DNA of 64,000 nucleotides. Origin: Nitrospira sp. (GTDB lineage Bacteria > Nitrospirota > Nitrospiria > Nitrospirales > Nitrospiraceae). Below the pieces are notes generated by a model. That model was given only the letters and a program-made list of their open reading frames with translations, was not told the origin of the DNA and made no database searches. The position numbers and the translations under genes are program-made. The stretch covers positions 3,437,237 through 3,501,236 of the forward strand of contig CP126123.1 of NCBI GenBank assembly GCA_030123605.1, written 5' to 3'. Below are positions 14,750 through 21,130 of the stretch, in pieces (the stretch's first letter is position 1; each line of letters begins with the position of its first letter).

Positions 14750-15046
14750 TTACCCGACGTGGATCTCGGTGGGGTGGGCGAAGATCCTCCGCGGGCCGCC
14801 GCGCCGGACCCGACAACGGACCTGCGCTCCGGCAGACAGCCCCGCCTTCTTCGCCGACTCATTCGCCATGTACACCCGTACGACCGTTCCCGCCGCGTCC
14901 GCGAGCAGGTTAGCAAATCCTACCACTGCTTGGGCGCGGCGCACGTGAATCTCCACGACGACGTGCTGAGCCACGTCCGCCGCCGGCGAGACCGACTGCA
15001 CCAACCCCTCCAGGTCCGTCCAATTTTCGATGATCGAGACTGCCAT
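14750..15046 (-). CDS. Small hypothetical protein (possible beta-barrel/OB-like), last gene of the M6/ATP-grasp operon
   Basis: Beta-rich 98-aa ORF co-directional with and overlapping the ATP-grasp gene; alternative start 15055. Confidence 0.55.
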   Translation of the reverse strand: MAVSIIENWTDLEGLVQSVSPAADVAQHVVVEIHVRRAQAVVGFANLLADAAGTVVRVYMANESAKKAGLSAGAQVRCRVRRGGPRRIFAHPTEIHVG

Positions 15047-15986
15047 GGTGCTCATTGTAGGGAGTGAGGAGGTAATCCACAATGGCTTCGGCGATCGGTT
15101 GGCCCGTCTGTTCTTGATAGAAACTGTATGCGGGGGAAGGGTTCACCTCGAAACAATAATAGGCGCCGTCGGGAGTCCGTTTGAGATCGATGCCACAGAG
15201 GGGGAGGTTCAACTCCTGCGAGAGGCGGAGGCAACGAGCGGCGATGTCGTTCGGCAACTCGATCGGCCTCATGGTCAGGTCCTGGCCGTCCCGCGCCGCA
15301 TAACGATAGTCGGTGGCACCGGTCACGATCTCCGTGGCGAACAGGCGCGTTCCGGCCGTGTGCACCCGCAGGTTGACGCCTGGCACGAAGGCCTGGAATT
15401 GAGTGGGAAGGTGCCGCAGCCTCTGCAACCCCCGCCGATCGTTCGGATTGAACTCGCGCACGATGGAGCGAATCGAGCTGATGCTCTTGAAAATGACCCG
15501 GCCGTGCTTCCGGTGAAACGCCACCGCTTCATCGAGGTCGTTCGTCACCAACGTGGTCGGAATCTCGAATCCGCAGCGGTTGATCAACCGGCATTGATAG
15601 GGTTTCGACATGTTGGACGCCATCGCTCCGGGACGGTTGAGCACGCGACAGTCCGCCAGTTCCAGCCATTGACAGAACGCTTCGTGAAAGACCCGCGAAC
15701 GTTCGACTGCCGCCTGGTCCGGGGTGCGATGTCGGAATGTCCGGTTTTCCGGAAGCACGTCGCTGTCGATCATCCGGGAGTAGATCCCTTGAATATCCGA
15801 CAGGCGATAGGTCGCATCACCGATGGCCAACGTGCCGTCGAAGCCCTCTTTGGTGGCGGTCAATCGCAGGCCGAGGTAGTGCGACTCCCGCTGGTTGAGT
15901 AACAGAAACGGCAGCCCGCGTTTCTCCGCCGCCTCGATCGCGAGCCGGAGAGGCTCTTCCGATGGGACACCGCAGAACAGGATCAT
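14910..15986 (-). CDS. RimK/graspetide-synthetase-like ATP-grasp ligase
   Basis: SNMSKPYQ, VIFKSIS, FQAFVPG, DYR, GIDLK, YCFEVNPSP ATP-grasp motifs; ATG at 15986 overlaps the upstream stop (ATGA). The last ~45 aa look like read-through. Confidence 0.88.
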   Translation of the reverse strand: MILFCGVPSEEPLRLAIEAAEKRGLPFLLLNQRESHYLGLRLTATKEGFDGTLAIGDATYRLSDIQGIYSRMIDSDVLPENRTFRHRTPDQAAVERSRVFHEAFCQWLELADCRVLNRPGAMASNMSKPYQCRLINRCGFEIPTTLVTNDLDEAVAFHRKHGRVIFKSISSIRSIVREFNPNDRRGLQRLRHLPTQFQAFVPGVNLRVHTAGTRLFATEIVTGATDYRYAARDGQDLTMRPIELPNDIAARCLRLSQELNLPLCGIDLKRTPDGAYYCFEVNPSPAYSFYQEQTGQPIAEAIVDYLLTPYNEHHGSLDHRKLDGPGGVGAVGLAGGGRGSARRRGDSRAPRPSSGRIC

Positions 15987-16819
15987 GCCGCTACCCTTAT
16001 CTCGGCCAGCGAATCCGCCACGAAGTCGGCTGCCTCCGGCGAAATCTCCGGCAGGGGCGTGGCGCCGCAGAAGCGCCACATGCCGCGCACCATACCTAGG
16101 TGGATCTCCAGGAGATGGTCTCCGCTCAGGCCCGCCAGTCTCGCGCAGGCCTCCGCACTTGCGCCGGGCGGCAGGCCGAGGCAACGTTCGCCGGCAACGA
16201 GGACGCGGCGGCGAGGTCCATCCACCTGCTCTAGGTATTGTACGGGAGCCCGTCCCAGGAGTTCCGGCCGCAGGATCGGCGGCGGATCATCCGTCCCCGC
16301 GCCGTTGTGGATCGCCACATGCGGCATGAACTCTGGGCGACGGAAGCGACGGGCCTCGCTCACCAGCTCGAATCCCCTGGTCGGCAGGCCGGCGCTTGCC
16401 GCCAGTGTCATCCATTCCAATCGGCTGCGGTCCGCCCCGCAGAGGCCGCGCGGACCGGCTCGGTTCACGACCGGGCAGGACAGGCCGGCGAGCCAGCTCA
16501 ATAGCAAGGCCTGCATCTCCGTGACGGCGTACTCGCGATCGGCCGGTTTCGACCCTTCGAACTGGGGCATGTCGAGTTGCTGGATGCGCTGAAACACCAC
16601 CCCCACCCGGTCGCTCTCGATGTGTCTGCCGTCGGCCAACGTCAACTTCGTACCGATGCCCGTGGAGTCCAGGGTATGGCTCCAGCGAGGAGCCAGGGCC
16701 AGCTCCTCGCCGGAGGCCAACTCGACCGCGTCCGCTCCGAGTCGTTTGCGCAGGGCACAGTAGACCCGCACGGCGGACCGGTCGTGGATGGGGCACAGGA
16801 CGAGGCAAGGTGCCTGCAT
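15983..16819 (-). CDS. Degenerate ATP-grasp-like protein
   Basis: DREYAVTEMQALLLSWLAGLSCPVVN parallels the neighbour's QWLELADCRVLN pre-grasp segment; the catalytic ExN motif is not seen. Confidence 0.6.
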   Translation of the reverse strand: MQAPCLVLCPIHDRSAVRVYCALRKRLGADAVELASGEELALAPRWSHTLDSTGIGTKLTLADGRHIESDRVGVVFQRIQQLDMPQFEGSKPADREYAVTEMQALLLSWLAGLSCPVVNRAGPRGLCGADRSRLEWMTLAASAGLPTRGFELVSEARRFRRPEFMPHVAIHNGAGTDDPPPILRPELLGRAPVQYLEQVDGPRRRVLVAGERCLGLPPGASAEACARLAGLSGDHLLEIHLGMVRGMWRFCGATPLPEISPEAADFVADSLAEIRVAA

Positions 16820-16824
16820 GAGGC

Positions 16825-18618
16825 TCAGCCCTCCCGCATCTTACTGTCGTAGAGCCGCTTGGCTTCCGCCGCGCCTTCCCGCATGCGTGCCTGCATTTCC
16901 TCGCAGTCGGATTCCGAGGCCAGCGCGCTTTCCCGCAGATCCGGGCGCAGGTCGCCCGTGATGTAGGGCTCGATGCTCTGCATCATGGATTCGAGGCGGG
17001 AGACGCGGTCCTCCAGGTCCGGTTCGGCCCCCGCCGTCCTCAACCCACCGGGAGGGCGTCCCTCGACGAGGTCCTTGTCCTTTTCCTTGATCTCCTTGAA
17101 GTCTTTCTCCTTCTCCTTAAGGATTTCCTTTCGTTCCTTGATCTCTTTTTCTTTGATCTCCTTGAACCCCTCTTTCCGGTCCTTCTCCTTGATGAACTCC
17201 TTGCGTTCCTTCTCCTTGATGAATTCCTTCCGTTCCTTGATCTCTTTGATCTTGCACTTGACGGCCAGTCGCGCCGTCATCGTGGCTCCGGACGAACCGA
17301 TATTGGTGATAGAGACGCAGGTGTTCACGTTGCCGTAGGACTTCGAATCCGGGTTGGAGGTGGCGTTGAAGGTCACGTTGTTGGCCGATCCGGGATAGGG
17401 ATCGCCGGCATCGCCGCGGTTGGCGCCGGTCGTGAGGTGCTTCAATCCGTCCGCCTGCATCAATGCAACCTGCGGATGGTTCTCATTCGAGTTGCCGCCG
17501 ACGGCTTCATCGACGTGGTAGACCAGCAGGCCCGGACCTGGGAGCATCTTGTCATAGGCCGTCTTTTGGCGATTCTCGACGAGAAAGTACTCATTGCCCG
17601 GCGCCCCGTCCTTCCAGAGCCGGTAGACGGCATGCCCGGTTTTGACGTCGGTGATCGAGACGGTTTGATTGGTCGTTTGGTTCACCACGGACACCCAGCC
17701 CTGGTTGACCTTGCACCAGGCGGAGGGGTGCGCCGGGATGTCGCCGCCGCCGTTCCAGCTGCCGCCCGCCATGAGGCACCAGTTGCCCAGGCCCTCGGAC
17801 GAGTAGTCGGTGTCGTAGAGGTCGGGCCATCCGAAGATCAGGTGCCCGAGTTCGTGGCAACAGACCCCGATCTTGCAGTCTTCCGGCACCGTCAGGTAGG
17901 CATAGATCTTCGTTCCGTCGGCGTTGTACGCGCCGCCGGACAGGACCCACTTGTGAGACCAGATATCGTTGACGTTCCCCGTTTGCTCCGCGCCCCCGCC
18001 GGCATGCAGCACCACGAAGGCATCCACGAACCCGTTGCCGTCGTTGTCGTATTGCGCGAAGTTGACGGTGGGGTTGGAGGCGTCGGCGGCATCCTTCGCC
18101 ATGGTGCGGGCGTTGGGCTCGACGTTGCCCGTGCCGGAGTCGCCGTGCGCATATTCGCTGAGCTTCTTGGGCATGCGGAAAGGCCCGACGACCTCGCCGA
18201 CCATATCGATCAGGCCGTGCGTGACTTCTTTGTAGTAGTCACGCACGCTGCCGTTCGGCAGGACTCCGGTCGAAAAGAACAGATCTTCGAAATGCTTCTT
18301 CGTCTTGGTCATCGGCTTGTCGGAAAAGTCGACCAGCACGACGATGACGCGGACGGTCCCGCGGAGCGGGGCCCGGTCGAGTGCGCCGTTCCGGACCGTA
18401 CGGGCCGATGTCCCGAGGGGATAATGGTCGCCGGGAAAGATCAACCCGTCGTCCATGCCGACGGGTTTGTTGCGGGCAATACGGAGCATGTTGGAAAACG
18501 CGGTTCTGGTCCTGCCTTTGGCCTTGTCCAGGTCGGCCTTCAGCTTTTTCTCCAAGTCGGGATGGGGAGCCACCAGACAGCGTTCGGAGTAACAGTGCAC
18601 GATCTTCCTCGATTCCAT
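16825..18618 (-). CDS. M6 family (immune inhibitor A-like) metalloprotease with C-terminal Lys/Glu repeat tail
   Basis: VIVVLVDFSD, DNDGNGFVD, IWSHKW, HELGH zinc motif, PDLYD, WCLMAGGSW, EYFLVENRQ; GAGGAGGT RBS before ATG 18618; no signal peptide apparent. Confidence 0.92.
   Translation of the reverse strand: MESRKIVHCYSERCLVAPHPDLEKKLKADLDKAKGRTRTAFSNMLRIARNKPVGMDDGLIFPGDHYPLGTSARTVRNGALDRAPLRGTVRVIVVLVDFSDKPMTKTKKHFEDLFFSTGVLPNGSVRDYYKEVTHGLIDMVGEVVGPFRMPKKLSEYAHGDSGTGNVEPNARTMAKDAADASNPTVNFAQYDNDGNGFVDAFVVLHAGGGAEQTGNVNDIWSHKWVLSGGAYNADGTKIYAYLTVPEDCKIGVCCHELGHLIFGWPDLYDTDYSSEGLGNWCLMAGGSWNGGGDIPAHPSAWCKVNQGWVSVVNQTTNQTVSITDVKTGHAVYRLWKDGAPGNEYFLVENRQKTAYDKMLPGPGLLVYHVDEAVGGNSNENHPQVALMQADGLKHLTTGANRGDAGDPYPGSANNVTFNATSNPDSKSYGNVNTCVSITNIGSSGATMTARLAVKCKIKEIKERKEFIKEKERKEFIKEKDRKEGFKEIKEKEIKERKEILKEKEKDFKEIKEKDKDLVEGRPPGGLRTAGAEPDLEDRVSRLESMMQSIEPYITGDLRPDLRESALASESDCEEMQARMREGAAEAKRLYDSKMREG
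17071..17253 (-). repeat. Coding K-E repeat tract including a 2x27-bp tandem repeat (17181-17234)
   Basis: 61 aa KIKEIKERKEFIKEKERKEFIKEKDRKEGFKEIKEKEIKERKEILKEKEKDFKEIKEKDKD; counted 22 K and 21 E/D. Confidence 0.95.
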
Positions 18619-19156: not shown

Positions 19157-20050
19157 TCACCGAGGGTTGGCGATTTGAAGCAGGCTTCCACCGGCGGCCA
19201 ACCTGGCGAACTGCCGCTTCATGCCGTTGACCTGATCAAGGTACCTCCTGGCGTCGTGGTCGCCGCATCGTTGGTGGGGGAGCAGTCGGAAGCCGTGTGC
19301 GACATAGGCACGGCCCGCTCCGATTCCGCAGAGGTGGATCACGGCGGCGAGATCCTGCTTGTGTTGACGGGCGGGTTTGGCCACAGTCCGTCGCCCGACC
19401 GCGTGTGTCACCGCACGGTCGAGTAGGGCCGCCGTCAACTCGATGGCATGACTCGGCAGGACTCGGCTGTAGAGGCTGTTGAACCAACAGGAGTTCACGT
19501 CGTGCCAAGGGCCGTCCCGGACCACCCGGTGATCATGGATGCAGTAGCGCTTGGCTTCTTGGAACGTTCCGTCGGTCATCTGATACATGCCGGCCGCGCT
19601 CGAGGCCGGTCGGTACCACTCCAAGGGATTCCAGCTCAGATGCCATCGCCAGTAGGTCCGCGCCACCGGGTTGCCCCCTCCCTCGACCTGGGCCAGCGCA
19701 GCCAACAACTCGGGCGTGATGACGGCGGTCGCATGCTCGCGGAACAGAGGGCCGTATTCCCGCCATGTTTCAAACGGGCGTTTGTCGAGTGTGTTATCCA
19801 GCGGGAAAAACACTTCCGTCGGTTTGTGGATCGCGTGGTATGCCCAGTTGATGCCGGCACCCAGCAACAGGAGGGTGGTCGCGCCGACCAACAGCCGCAA
19901 CCAGAACGGCAAGGCCCGCAAGGCGACCCACATCGCCTTGAGTCCATGCAGCCAGGATCGCGCGCGCCTGCGGACGGCTGTGAGTGAGATCCGACGGCGG
20001 TGTTTTGTGCGGAGGACTCCGGCCGACCGTACATGGGAGCGGGAGGACAT
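19157..20050 (-). CDS. Lytic transglycosylase (SLT-like) domain protein with N-terminal membrane anchor
   Basis: LAALAQVEGGGNP (catalytic Glu) and SAAGMYQMT motif; TM helix LLVGATTLLLLGAGI. Confidence 0.75.
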   Translation of the reverse strand: MSSRSHVRSAGVLRTKHRRRISLTAVRRRARSWLHGLKAMWVALRALPFWLRLLVGATTLLLLGAGINWAYHAIHKPTEVFFPLDNTLDKRPFETWREYGPLFREHATAVITPELLAALAQVEGGGNPVARTYWRWHLSWNPLEWYRPASSAAGMYQMTDGTFQEAKRYCIHDHRVVRDGPWHDVNSCWFNSLYSRVLPSHAIELTAALLDRAVTHAVGRRTVAKPARQHKQDLAAVIHLCGIGAGRAYVAHGFRLLPHQRCGDHDARRYLDQVNGMKRQFARLAAGGSLLQIANPR

Positions 20051-20104
20051 GACCTCACTATAACCCAAAAAGGAATAGGTGGCGGTTGGATGCGCTCGAT
20101 CGAT

Positions 20105-20590
20105 TTAGGCTGGGGCAGGTGTCGCGGTCTTCGCCGGTTCGCGATACTTGGCGAAACAGATGAGATCCAGATGGTGGTAGTGGTTGGGCAGCAGGGTTTC
20201 CGCTTTGTAGCCCAGGCTCAGGAAAAACTGAATGTTCCTGGCTGTGCGGAGCATGGTGCAGGCGTAGAACTTATGGGCGTCGGTCGTAGCTTGTTCGATT
20301 TCTCTGATCAGCGCTGTTCCCACTCCATGTTTCTGGTGGGCGGGATTCACCGATAACAGCCGGATCACGCAGACCCCGGCTACGGTCCAAAAGCGTACCG
20401 ATCCGACAATGGCCTCTTCTGACTCCGCCACGAAGATACGTTTGTCCTTTGCATCTTGTCTGAGGCTATCGAGCGTTTCCGTGGTCCAGGCGCTCACTTC
20501 GTAGACCGTGGCGTATTCACCGAAGGCTGCCCGTTGAACCCGGAGGATCGCCTCGAAATCGTCTTCGGTGGCTGGCCGGATGTGAATCAT
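20105..20590 (-). CDS. GNAT family N-acetyltransferase
   Basis: IRPATEDD start; LSVNPAHQKHGVGTALI acetyl-CoA motif A. Start uncertain (20590 or 20662). Confidence 0.85.
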   Translation of the reverse strand: MIHIRPATEDDFEAILRVQRAAFGEYATVYEVSAWTTETLDSLRQDAKDKRIFVAESEEAIVGSVRFWTVAGVCVIRLLSVNPAHQKHGVGTALIREIEQATTDAHKFYACTMLRTARNIQFFLSLGYKAETLLPNHYHHLDLICFAKYREPAKTATPAPA

Positions 20591-20689
20591 GAACGGCGCT
20601 CCGATTGGATTCACCTCACCTTGCGAAGGTGAAGATAGCAGAGTGCGACCTTCTTCTTCCATCTTGGCGCGAGGTAACGATTGACCGAT

Positions 20690-21130
20690 TGCCTTAGGGA
20701 GAAACGAGCGAGGTCGGAAGGGGGTGGGGGTGGTCCGTTCGTTTCCTGCGCTCACGCAACGCGCGGCTTCAGATCTTCTAAGGCACGGCCGGCTCACTAT
20801 CTCGCCGGCGCCCACAAGCGTGGCGCTCATTATTCTTCATGCCGTGGACCTCGCAGAACGCGCACGAAAGCGTGAAGCGGGCAGCCTGGTCGTCCTCCTG
20901 CTCGCGGAACGCGAGCCCTCAGAAGGGCCTCGTTCGACGCGCGCATTCGAGGATCGACCAGGCTACCCGAGGAAGAGAACGGGAGGCGAGGGTGGAATGA
21001 CCATCTAGGCGATGCTCGTCCGATGCGCGCAGTGGAGGATCGATTAGCCTCCTTGCGGGAGAAACGAGCGAACCTTGGAAGGAACATCGGTAGTCGGATG
21101 TGCGCACCGGAGAACCAATCGGGCCACTCT
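20690..21130. repeat. Cluster of family-B intergenic repeat units
   Basis: GGGAGAAACGAGCGA at ~20697 and ~21057; 25-bp GCCCTCAGAAGGGCCTCGTTCGACG at 20915-20939 is identical to 55656-55680. Confidence 0.7.

Follow-up and report, generated by a model that had tools for sequence, protein, structure and literature searches.

A signal-less M6 protease with a C-terminal Lys/acid-repeat module encoded beside a graspetide-type ATP-grasp ligase and its degenerate paralogue in Nitrospira

Results

Organisation of the locus

The stretch of DNA analysed here (the window) comprises 64,000 nucleotides of a Nitrospira sp. genome (GenBank assembly GCA_030123605.1, contig CP126123.1, positions 3,437,237 to 3,501,236 of the forward strand). 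This report concerns four co-directional, closely coupled genes on its minus strand at positions 14750-18618, designated A, B, C and D in 5' to 3' order. Gene A (16825-18618) encodes a cytoplasmic M6 zinc metalloprotease of 597 residues (PF05547 and TIGR03296) with a C-terminal substrate-like module. Gene B (15983-16819) encodes a catalytically dead ATP-grasp paralogue of 278 residues, probably a scaffold or recognition subunit. Gene C (14910-15986, conserved part approximately 15057-15986) encodes an intact ATP-grasp ligase of the graspetide type, and gene D (14750-15046) a 98-residue OB-like beta-barrel protein that appears to be an M6-specific partner.

The tight coupling of the four genes, proposed in an initial annotation of the window, was confirmed. 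A GAGGAGG Shine-Dalgarno sequence precedes the ATG of gene A at 18618, the stop codon of A is separated from the start of B by a gap of 5 nt, the start of C (15986) overlaps the stop of B as ATGA, and the 3' end of C overlaps D by 137 nt. The latter overlap is due to a lineage-specific 48-residue extension of C (14910-15056), in which the usual stop codon of the family has been lost; the extension is of low complexity, rich in Gly, Arg and Pro, and crosses the start of D. A relative with 88% identity (P0005, 375 residues) carries the same extension, and the other C homologues stop at approximately 310 residues. A scan for promoters and terminators showed no signal exceeding that of shuffled sequences.

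The M6 protease encoded by gene A

The product of gene A scored 89.8 bits against PF05547 (cut-off 22) and 261.9 bits against TIGR03296 (cut-off 110.8), with the whole of the latter profile covered. The catalytic domain (TIGR03296; 17515-18342) contains the HExxH motif as HELGH (17842-17856), which is invariant among the homologues. In an AlphaFold2 model of the full-length protein, built on a 30-sequence alignment, the catalytic core had predicted local distance difference test (pLDDT) values of approximately 80-97. Enzymes of the M6 family of the immune inhibitor A (InhA) type are typically secreted by means of an N-terminal signal peptide. The gene A product shares their catalytic domain and differs in that no hydrophobic N-terminal signal peptide was visible by inspection; the same was true of the S8 and NAL1 hosts described below. 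The profile scores, the HELGH motif and the N-terminus are thus in keeping with the apparently signal-less M6 zinc protease of the initial annotation. Close to the N-terminus lies the motif RCLVAPHPDL (18553-18582), which takes the form RC[LM]VAPxPxL in M6-type homologues, and whose Cys14 and Pro20 are invariant in 30 homologues. This motif may be a prosegment or a cysteine-switch-like element that keeps the cytoplasmic protease latent.

The C-terminal part of the protein carries a 63-residue Lys/acid repeat tract (residues 454-516; 17071-17259), the proposed site of Lys-Glu/Asp stapling. The tract contains 23 Lys, 17 Glu, 4 Asp and 4 Arg, and Glu or Asp directly follows 21 of the 23 Lys, far above chance. 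A 27-bp tandem repeat in three copies lies within it (17157-17238). The tract had been described as a 61-residue run of K-E and K-D dipeptides at the very end of the protein; the run itself is real, but it is not terminal, as 81 further residues follow, made up of a Gly/Pro hinge, a helix, the motif EPYITGDLRPDL and a charged end finishing in AKRLYDSKMREG. The hinge, LVEGRPPGGLRTAGAEP, occupies 17020-17070, and a G/P-rich hinge is found at the equivalent place in the homologues. The amphipathic helix DLEDRVSRLESMMQSI and the motif EPYITGDLRPDL together span 16936-17019 (as a 28-mer, DLEDRVSRLESMMQSIEPYITGDLRPDL) and are proposed to form a leader-like docking element for B and C. ExD is conserved in the post-motif tail, RESALASESD...AKRLYDSKMREG (16828-16935), as is AKRxYDxK within the M6 class. 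The helix with the [P/H]FIxxxLRPDL motif behind the repeat is conserved as a putative recognition element, and was absent from the earlier account.

The ATP-grasp proteins encoded by genes B and C

The best NCBIfam matches of C were TIGR04187 (6e-38), MvdC and MvdD, the RimK family model TIGR00768 giving just 4e-11. Similarly, a C profile compared with the PDB matched PsnB at 1.5e-32, followed by CdnC, MdnC, AMdnB and MdnB, with RimK at approximately 1e-10. Against TIGR00768 (RimK family alpha-L-glutamate ligases) C scored 42.7 bits, below the cut-off of 143.4. On these sequence comparisons C belongs to the graspetide-synthetase clade and is closer to it than to RimK. The ATP/Mg residues are intact, with K167, DYRYA, E280 and N282 invariant within the family. 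The previous description of C as an intact RimK-like ligase with a DYR motif therefore stands as regards the intact site and the motif, but the nearest relatives are the graspetide synthetases rather than RimK. RimK-like polyglutamylation, which had also been put forward, is the less likely chemistry, C being much nearer to the macrocyclases than to RimK in the PDB comparison.

Gene B had no family match in Pfam or NCBIfam. Alignment with the C family by hhalign (probability 96.9%, E 1.4e-10) identified it as a full-length yet degenerate paralogue, which lacks the central ATP-binding segment, the DYRYA loop and the E-x-N Mg site. B is catalytically dead, and the locus therefore encodes one enzyme and one pseudo-enzyme. 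The suggestion that two ATP-grasp enzymes operate here as in microviridin loci was not sustained, as B has lost its catalytic segments. A natural fusion of B and C into a single 575-residue protein is found in Longimicrobium (locus L077, L077:5996-7723), and this, together with the fact that the genes are strictly adjacent, suggests that B and C work as a pair.

The protein encoded by gene D

No Pfam or NCBIfam model matched D, and no repeated or conserved core of Lys, Ser or Thr with acidic residues was found in it. The AlphaFold2 model (pLDDT 95.3, predicted template modelling score 0.84) is a compact five-strand OB-like barrel. A Foldseek search of the PDB gave generic OB-fold (PriB/SSB) and NTR/C345C matches, with E values of at least 1.6e-3 and template modelling scores of approximately 0.55. 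D and the M6 domain occurred together in 32 loci of the comparative sample described below and were both lacking in 29, with D alone in one. D is unlikely to be a general substrate, because half of the family lacks it and its predicted structure is a well-folded barrel; it may instead be an M6-specific OB-fold partner, possibly an inhibitor or a chaperone. The strict co-occurrence with M6, the conserved IIENW N-terminus and the weak NTR fold match hint more specifically at a TIMP/NTR-like OB-fold inhibitor of the M6 domain, an assignment that we hold to be rather unlikely.

Comparative analysis of B-C loci

Relatives of C number in the thousands, with 571 confirmed matches among species-representative genomes. 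For comparison, 80 loci from species-representative genomes and four from assemblies were collected (83 non-duplicate, approximately 12 phyla), and iterated hidden Markov models of the M6 core, the A tail, B, C and D were run over all open reading frames (ORFs) of the loci. The phyla with B-C loci include Nitrospirota, Acidobacteriota, Chloroflexota, Gemmatimonadota, Bacteroidota and Pseudomonadota, as well as Actinomycetota, Myxococcota, Verrucomicrobiota, Planctomycetota and others.

Of the 72 non-duplicate loci in which 1.3 kb or more of DNA upstream of C was available, 71 encode a protein ending in the module directly before B-C. A K/E-tailed protein thus accompanies the ATP-grasp genes in other genomes too, the host being an M6 protease in approximately half of the loci. 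The commonest host elsewhere was a protein of 130-350 residues consisting of K/E repeats and the motif alone (K/E-only hosts, 23 loci). Other hosts were an S8 subtilase with its own prodomain, a NAL1-like serine protease, a B_lectin protein and an astacin, and the module is borne in Longimicrobium by a TIG/Ig-repeat protein of 1834 residues (L077:305-5809). Cultured carriers include Archangium minus Cbm 6 (K/E-only host), Chitinophaga solisilvae O9 (NAL1 type), and Sphingomonas azotifigens NBRC 15497 and Salipiger mangrovisoli (both M6 type). No Sec signal peptide was seen on inspection of the module-bearing hosts of the sampled loci. In another Nitrospira (L046), two module genes stand in tandem before one B-C pair, encoding an S8 subtilase (L046:2637-4616) and a B_lectin protein (L046:4675-6177), which implies that one ligase pair may have several substrates.

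As the hosts are unrelated, the module is the only constant link to B-C, and as the sole element always accompanying the pair, it is the best candidate for the substrate. The idea that the protease carries a built-in ATP-grasp substrate fits these data well, since the module travels with B-C whatever the carrier. A maximum-likelihood tree of C showed a split with support of 100/92 between a clade associated with M6 (and D) and a clade with all other hosts. In the second clade, protease fusions were scattered among K/E-only hosts, and D was absent throughout. Because the C tree splits by host type, the ligase and the module type appear to co-evolve.

The module across the family

The module has the consensus ...E.RL..LE..V..L.[H/P]FI...LRPDL..GAL..E.D. 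In an alignment of the module (A3), I26, R31 and P32 were invariant, and F25, D33, L34, A38, L39 and E42 were at least 90% conserved. Neither Pfam nor NCBIfam contains a model for it. When 1.84 billion representative proteins were searched with a profile of the module, 614 clusters were returned. The motif usually stands 15-76 residues before the C-terminus; among the best 150 matches the module was almost always near the C-terminus, with a median of 37 residues after RPDL, and four lay more than 90 residues from the end. Most of the hosts in this search had no Pfam domain, and a minority carried NAL1, S8, astacin, trypsin or B_lectin.

Lys/acid repeats were present upstream of the motif in all validated modules. 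Tracts with a lower K/E content are still periodic in DK/EK, for example FDKNFDKNFDKN and DKLSDKFSDKLSD, with a recurring EKP[IV][IT]DKS..[FL]DK. Several apparent short, repeat-less precursors were discarded: those of L052, L060, L081 and P0252 are gene calls that had been truncated or frameshifted, K/E repeats being present upstream, and P0259 lies on a chimeric contig of approximately 1x coverage.

The Lys:Arg ratio was 11.4 in the repeats, whereas the remainder of these proteins gave 0.67, and B and C together 0.21; the filter for repeat windows required Lys and inflated the ratio somewhat, Arg nonetheless making up just 2.4% of the repeat regions even in high-GC genomes. Approximately 97% of the repeat Lys have an acidic residue at +1 or -1, and KK is nearly absent. 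Such Lys-specific, acid-paired repeats would be expected if Lys were a nucleophile paired with a carboxylate. The repeats contain approximately 4% Pro and approximately 20% hydrophobic residues, and this composition, together with the near-absence of Arg, led us to down-weight a reading of the repeat as a single-alpha-helix (ER/K) spacer.

Two more distant loci of the Nitrospirota extend the picture. At L092:6012-6470 (minus strand; G140:C24), the bare motif MGRQPFITADLRPDM stands at the N-terminus of a protein related to PqqD and the RiPP recognition element (RRE), RiPP denoting a ribosomally synthesised and post-translationally modified peptide, beside a distant B-like/C-like pair. A bare motif on an RRE protein next to such a pair fits the motif as a docking peptide. 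The neighbouring genes of L092 (two HPr-kinase-like genes, an ABC transporter, a transglutaminase-like protease of the lasso B2 type and a nucleotidyltransferase-like gene) have the look of a lasso-type cluster in which this docking motif is put to use as well. At L090:8639-10564 (minus strand; G007:C83), upstream of a distant B-C pair, lies a 641-residue protein with no Pfam match that ends in (EK)n and xDKxxEK repeats, TFIRPGERPDV and a Lys-rich tail. The adjoining gene encodes NHL repeats and a Tail_P2_I domain, and judging from the L090 sequence, the module may also be attached to contractile-injection-type proteins.

Genomic context

The 4.3-Mb single-contig genome from which the window is taken has exactly one module and one C, and two genomes of the same genus have neither. 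In one of these same-genus genomes, which is complete (G059), the interval between the amylase-family and SLT-like genes holds an unrelated 1.9 kb in place of the 4.4 kb found here. At this variable site (L098, G059:C1:3748000-3753400), ORFs of 283 and 132 residues replace the four-gene cassette. The four genes are on this evidence an accessory cassette with a patchy distribution, compatible with horizontal transfer. A wider sampling, of Nitrospirota (151 genomes) and of the phylum to which G151 belongs (201 genomes), gave too few positives for an informative two-by-two table of co-occurrence, the tail and a close C occurring together in the centre genomes alone. The same sampling held four distant Nitrospirota B-C pairs with divergent or relocated motifs, which had been missed by the short profile.

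Elsewhere in the window, a query covering 19157-20830 ended in an element of approximately 50 bp (approximately 20775-20830) with dozens of copies, 80-94% identical, in two same-genus genomes. The copies are consistent with a miniature inverted-repeat transposable element that the initial annotation had placed elsewhere in the window.

Discussion

Relation to described families

The ATP-grasp "branch 8" of Makarova et al. 2022 (Biol Direct 17:7, PMC8939145) was described with no precursor detected, and peptidases were proposed to supply peptides from other proteins. "Graspetide group 32" was defined with RODEO by Carter, Ramesh, Saad, Mubarik & Mitchell 2026 (ACS Chem Biol, PMC13097080), who found TIGR03296 M6 domains in 21.7% of its biosynthetic gene clusters. 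Neither branch 8 nor group 32 has been characterised experimentally (PMC8939145, PMC13097080). Group 32 is very probably the same as branch 8, judging by the matching descriptions rather than by common accessions. By its sequence relationships, the present locus is a member of this catalogued, experimentally uncharacterised family: it has the graspetide-type ATP-grasp, the truncated inactive ATP-grasp, a neighbouring peptidase (here M6, one of several unrelated families found in this position) and the D homologue. It departs from the published accounts as regards the substrate, since the papers give either no precursor (2022) or the D homologue as precursor (2026), whereas the present data point to the C-terminal module of K/acid repeats and [P/H]FIxxxLRPDL. 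The architecture had been thought undescribed; the gene association is in fact present in both papers (PMC8939145, PMC13097080), but the fused module is recognised in neither, and no published description of it was found in the literature.

Proposed mechanism

The protein encoded by gene A would be made as a cytoplasmic M6 pro-enzyme whose tail consists of the 63-residue Lys/acid repeat, the hinge, the amphipathic helix with [P/H]FIxxxLRPDLxxGAL..ExD, and the charged end. B would pair with C, and the pair would dock on the helix and motif, which would act like a leader (here follower) peptide. C would then use ATP to activate Glu/Asp side chains for attack by the epsilon-amines of neighbouring Lys, and the product, by analogy with CorB and MyxF, would carry multiple isopeptide (lactam) staples in the repeat, each with a mass change of -18 Da. 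On the combined evidence of conservation, co-occurrence and enzyme kinship, we consider it somewhat probable that the B-C pair docks on the helix and motif and that the staples made by C join Lys to Glu/Asp inside the repeats. The stapled, charge-neutralised tract could form a protease-resistant rod or a latch on the protease, and its role may be that of a latch or tether for signal-less proteases, of self-protection of the linker, or of release of a cyclic peptide.

A more far-reaching proposal, which we regard as possible but doubtful, is that the heterodimer of active and dead ATP-grasp proteins turns a portable C-terminal module into a multiply stapled, charge-neutral, protease-proof rod, that is, that graspetide chemistry is applied to full-size proteins. 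Five or more unrelated protease families, together with lectins, giant TIG-repeat proteins and a contractile-injection-type protein, would in this case have acquired the module, which would serve signal-less and potentially dangerous enzymes as a covalently locked latch or tether, with D as an M6-specific TIMP/NTR-like OB-fold inhibitor.

Several observations weigh against stapling within the repeats. In the AlphaFold2 model of full-length A, the repeat, helix and tail had pLDDT values of 30-60 and so provide no structural support and no information on conformation or docking. The spacing from Lys to acid in the repeats is spread (+1 at 0.56, +4 at 0.42) with none dominant, and the periods vary (KEF, KExxKE, FDKN, KPEKE), so that the ring-forming residues cannot be assigned. 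C scored 130.8 bits against TIGR04187 (GRASP_SAV_5884; curated cut-off 350) and 87.6 and 79.5 bits against MvdC and MvdD (cut-offs 425 and 475), and since every score is under the curated cut-off, C falls in no named equivalog and represents a separate family without a curated model. One locus, L018, has B, C and D with no adjacent module or M6 gene, L018:3643-6090 encoding an unrelated 815-residue protein. The charged K/E tract could also be a passive spacer. Finally, a graspetide precursor would present, next to the ligase genes, a recognition motif and a core of Lys, Ser or Thr with Asp or Glu; a conserved motif and a Lys/acid-rich region do stand there, but they form the C-terminus of a large protein, and the motif comes after the repeats. 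The order in canonical RiPPs is leader before core, and because the motif here follows the repeats, the core could be the short K/D/E-rich segment after RPDL. As regards L018, its contig is just 8.8 kb long, and a substrate gene may sit elsewhere in that genome.

Alternative explanations

The main alternative develops the point about the order of leader and core, placing the core in the post-motif segment alone (the last 15-45 or so residues, for example ExD...AKRLYDSK) and taking the repeat as an unmodified polyampholyte spacer or single-helix stalk. It would restore the usual RiPP order of leader before core, and is favoured by the conserved ExD, by the AKRxYDxK of the M6 class, which contains a KxxxD like the corallotide ring, and by the helix that AlphaFold2 predicts for the repeat at low confidence. 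The post-motif segment is nevertheless very variable, being as short as 16-17 residues without a conserved nucleophile (...GALQGEEDSDE in Bacteroidota M6 proteins and ...REEDLEG in L077), whereas every validated case has repeats with a strong specificity for Lys and with acids paired to it; the Pro (approximately 4%) and hydrophobic residues (approximately 20%) in them are atypical of ER/K single helices. We therefore judge a post-motif core to be improbable. It is still less probable that the peptidase cuts other cellular proteins, with B-C modifying the peptides released, as was suggested for branch 8 (PMC8939145), or that C adds amino acids to the acidic tail in the manner of RimK or TTL. 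A weak similarity to the RimK family (TIGR00768, 4e-11) and the acid-rich tails could be cited for such addition, but C is much closer to the macrocyclases. The supply of peptides by the peptidase is difficult to reconcile with the fact that most module-bearing proteins have no peptidase domain and that 23 of the loci have K/E-only hosts, from which it follows that B-C can do without the peptidase. In the screen of 2022, moreover, precursors were limited to ORFs of 150 residues or fewer, and it was consequently blind to the fused module.

It is also conceivable that D is the graspetide precursor, which the protease would mature or export. D directly follows C, and the "precursor peptide" shown for group 32 (PMC13097080, Fig. 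S9) is the D homologue of Spirosoma sp. KCTC 42546; BLASTP of D against that protein gave an E value of 6e-14, and both begin with IIENWT. D is, however, absent from all 29 complete non-M6 loci with B-C and from the second C clade, and its compact barrel (pLDDT 95.3), devoid of a core of Lys, Ser or Thr with acidic residues, is unlike a disordered leader-core peptide. This makes D highly unlikely as the precursor, the least probable of the explanations considered.

Comparison with characterised systems

Modification of the repeats by B-C, the reading preferred here, has partial counterparts among known ATP-grasp systems. CorB makes Lys-Asp isopeptides in the five KxxxD repeats of the 22-kDa CorA (PMC13097080). 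This corallotide system (group 15) resembles the present one in its large precursor of approximately 22 kDa, its repeated motifs and its TIGR04187-type ATP-grasp; it differs in that CorA stands alone, with no fused enzyme, dead-paralogue partner or RPDL motif, is hydroxylated by a 2-oxoglutarate oxygenase and is restricted to Corallococcus. MyxF installs lactams in tandem (KxxE)n, and MyxD2, inactive alone, needs partner ligases (PMC12848669). The myxomiditide system thus shares ATP-grasp lactams in Lys/acid repeats and a ligase that depends on partners, but its precursor is short, of the microviridin type and headed by an N-terminal leader, and the system uses four ligases and no enzyme fusion.

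The microviridin ligases MdnB/MdnC (MvdC/MvdD) belong to the same ATP-grasp clade, are guided in cross-linking by a leader motif and likewise come as two ATP-grasp genes per locus. Both are active, however, with the ester and amide steps divided between them, and their precursor has approximately 50 residues, as against a 600-residue protease here and a B without catalytic residues. RimK, an ATP-grasp enzyme acting on ribosomal protein S6, is similar in having as its target the acidic C-terminus of a full-size protein; it adds alpha-linked Glu at the C-terminus, whereas C groups with the macrocyclases.

Significance

The family to which this locus belongs is an orphan graspetide-ligase branch, with more than 570 matches in species-representative genomes across approximately 12 phyla, which for four years has had "no detectable precursor", and the recent survey appears to have named the wrong ORF as the group 32 precursor. 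The fused module provides a concrete candidate substrate and a new twist on graspetide logic. A further issue that it brings up is the means by which bacteria prevent M6, S8 and S1 proteases without signal peptides from doing damage in the cytoplasm. If the proposal is correct, RiPP-type side-chain stapling would extend from peptides to whole enzymes, and the docking motif with its K/E repeats would represent a natural, genetically encodable "staple tag".

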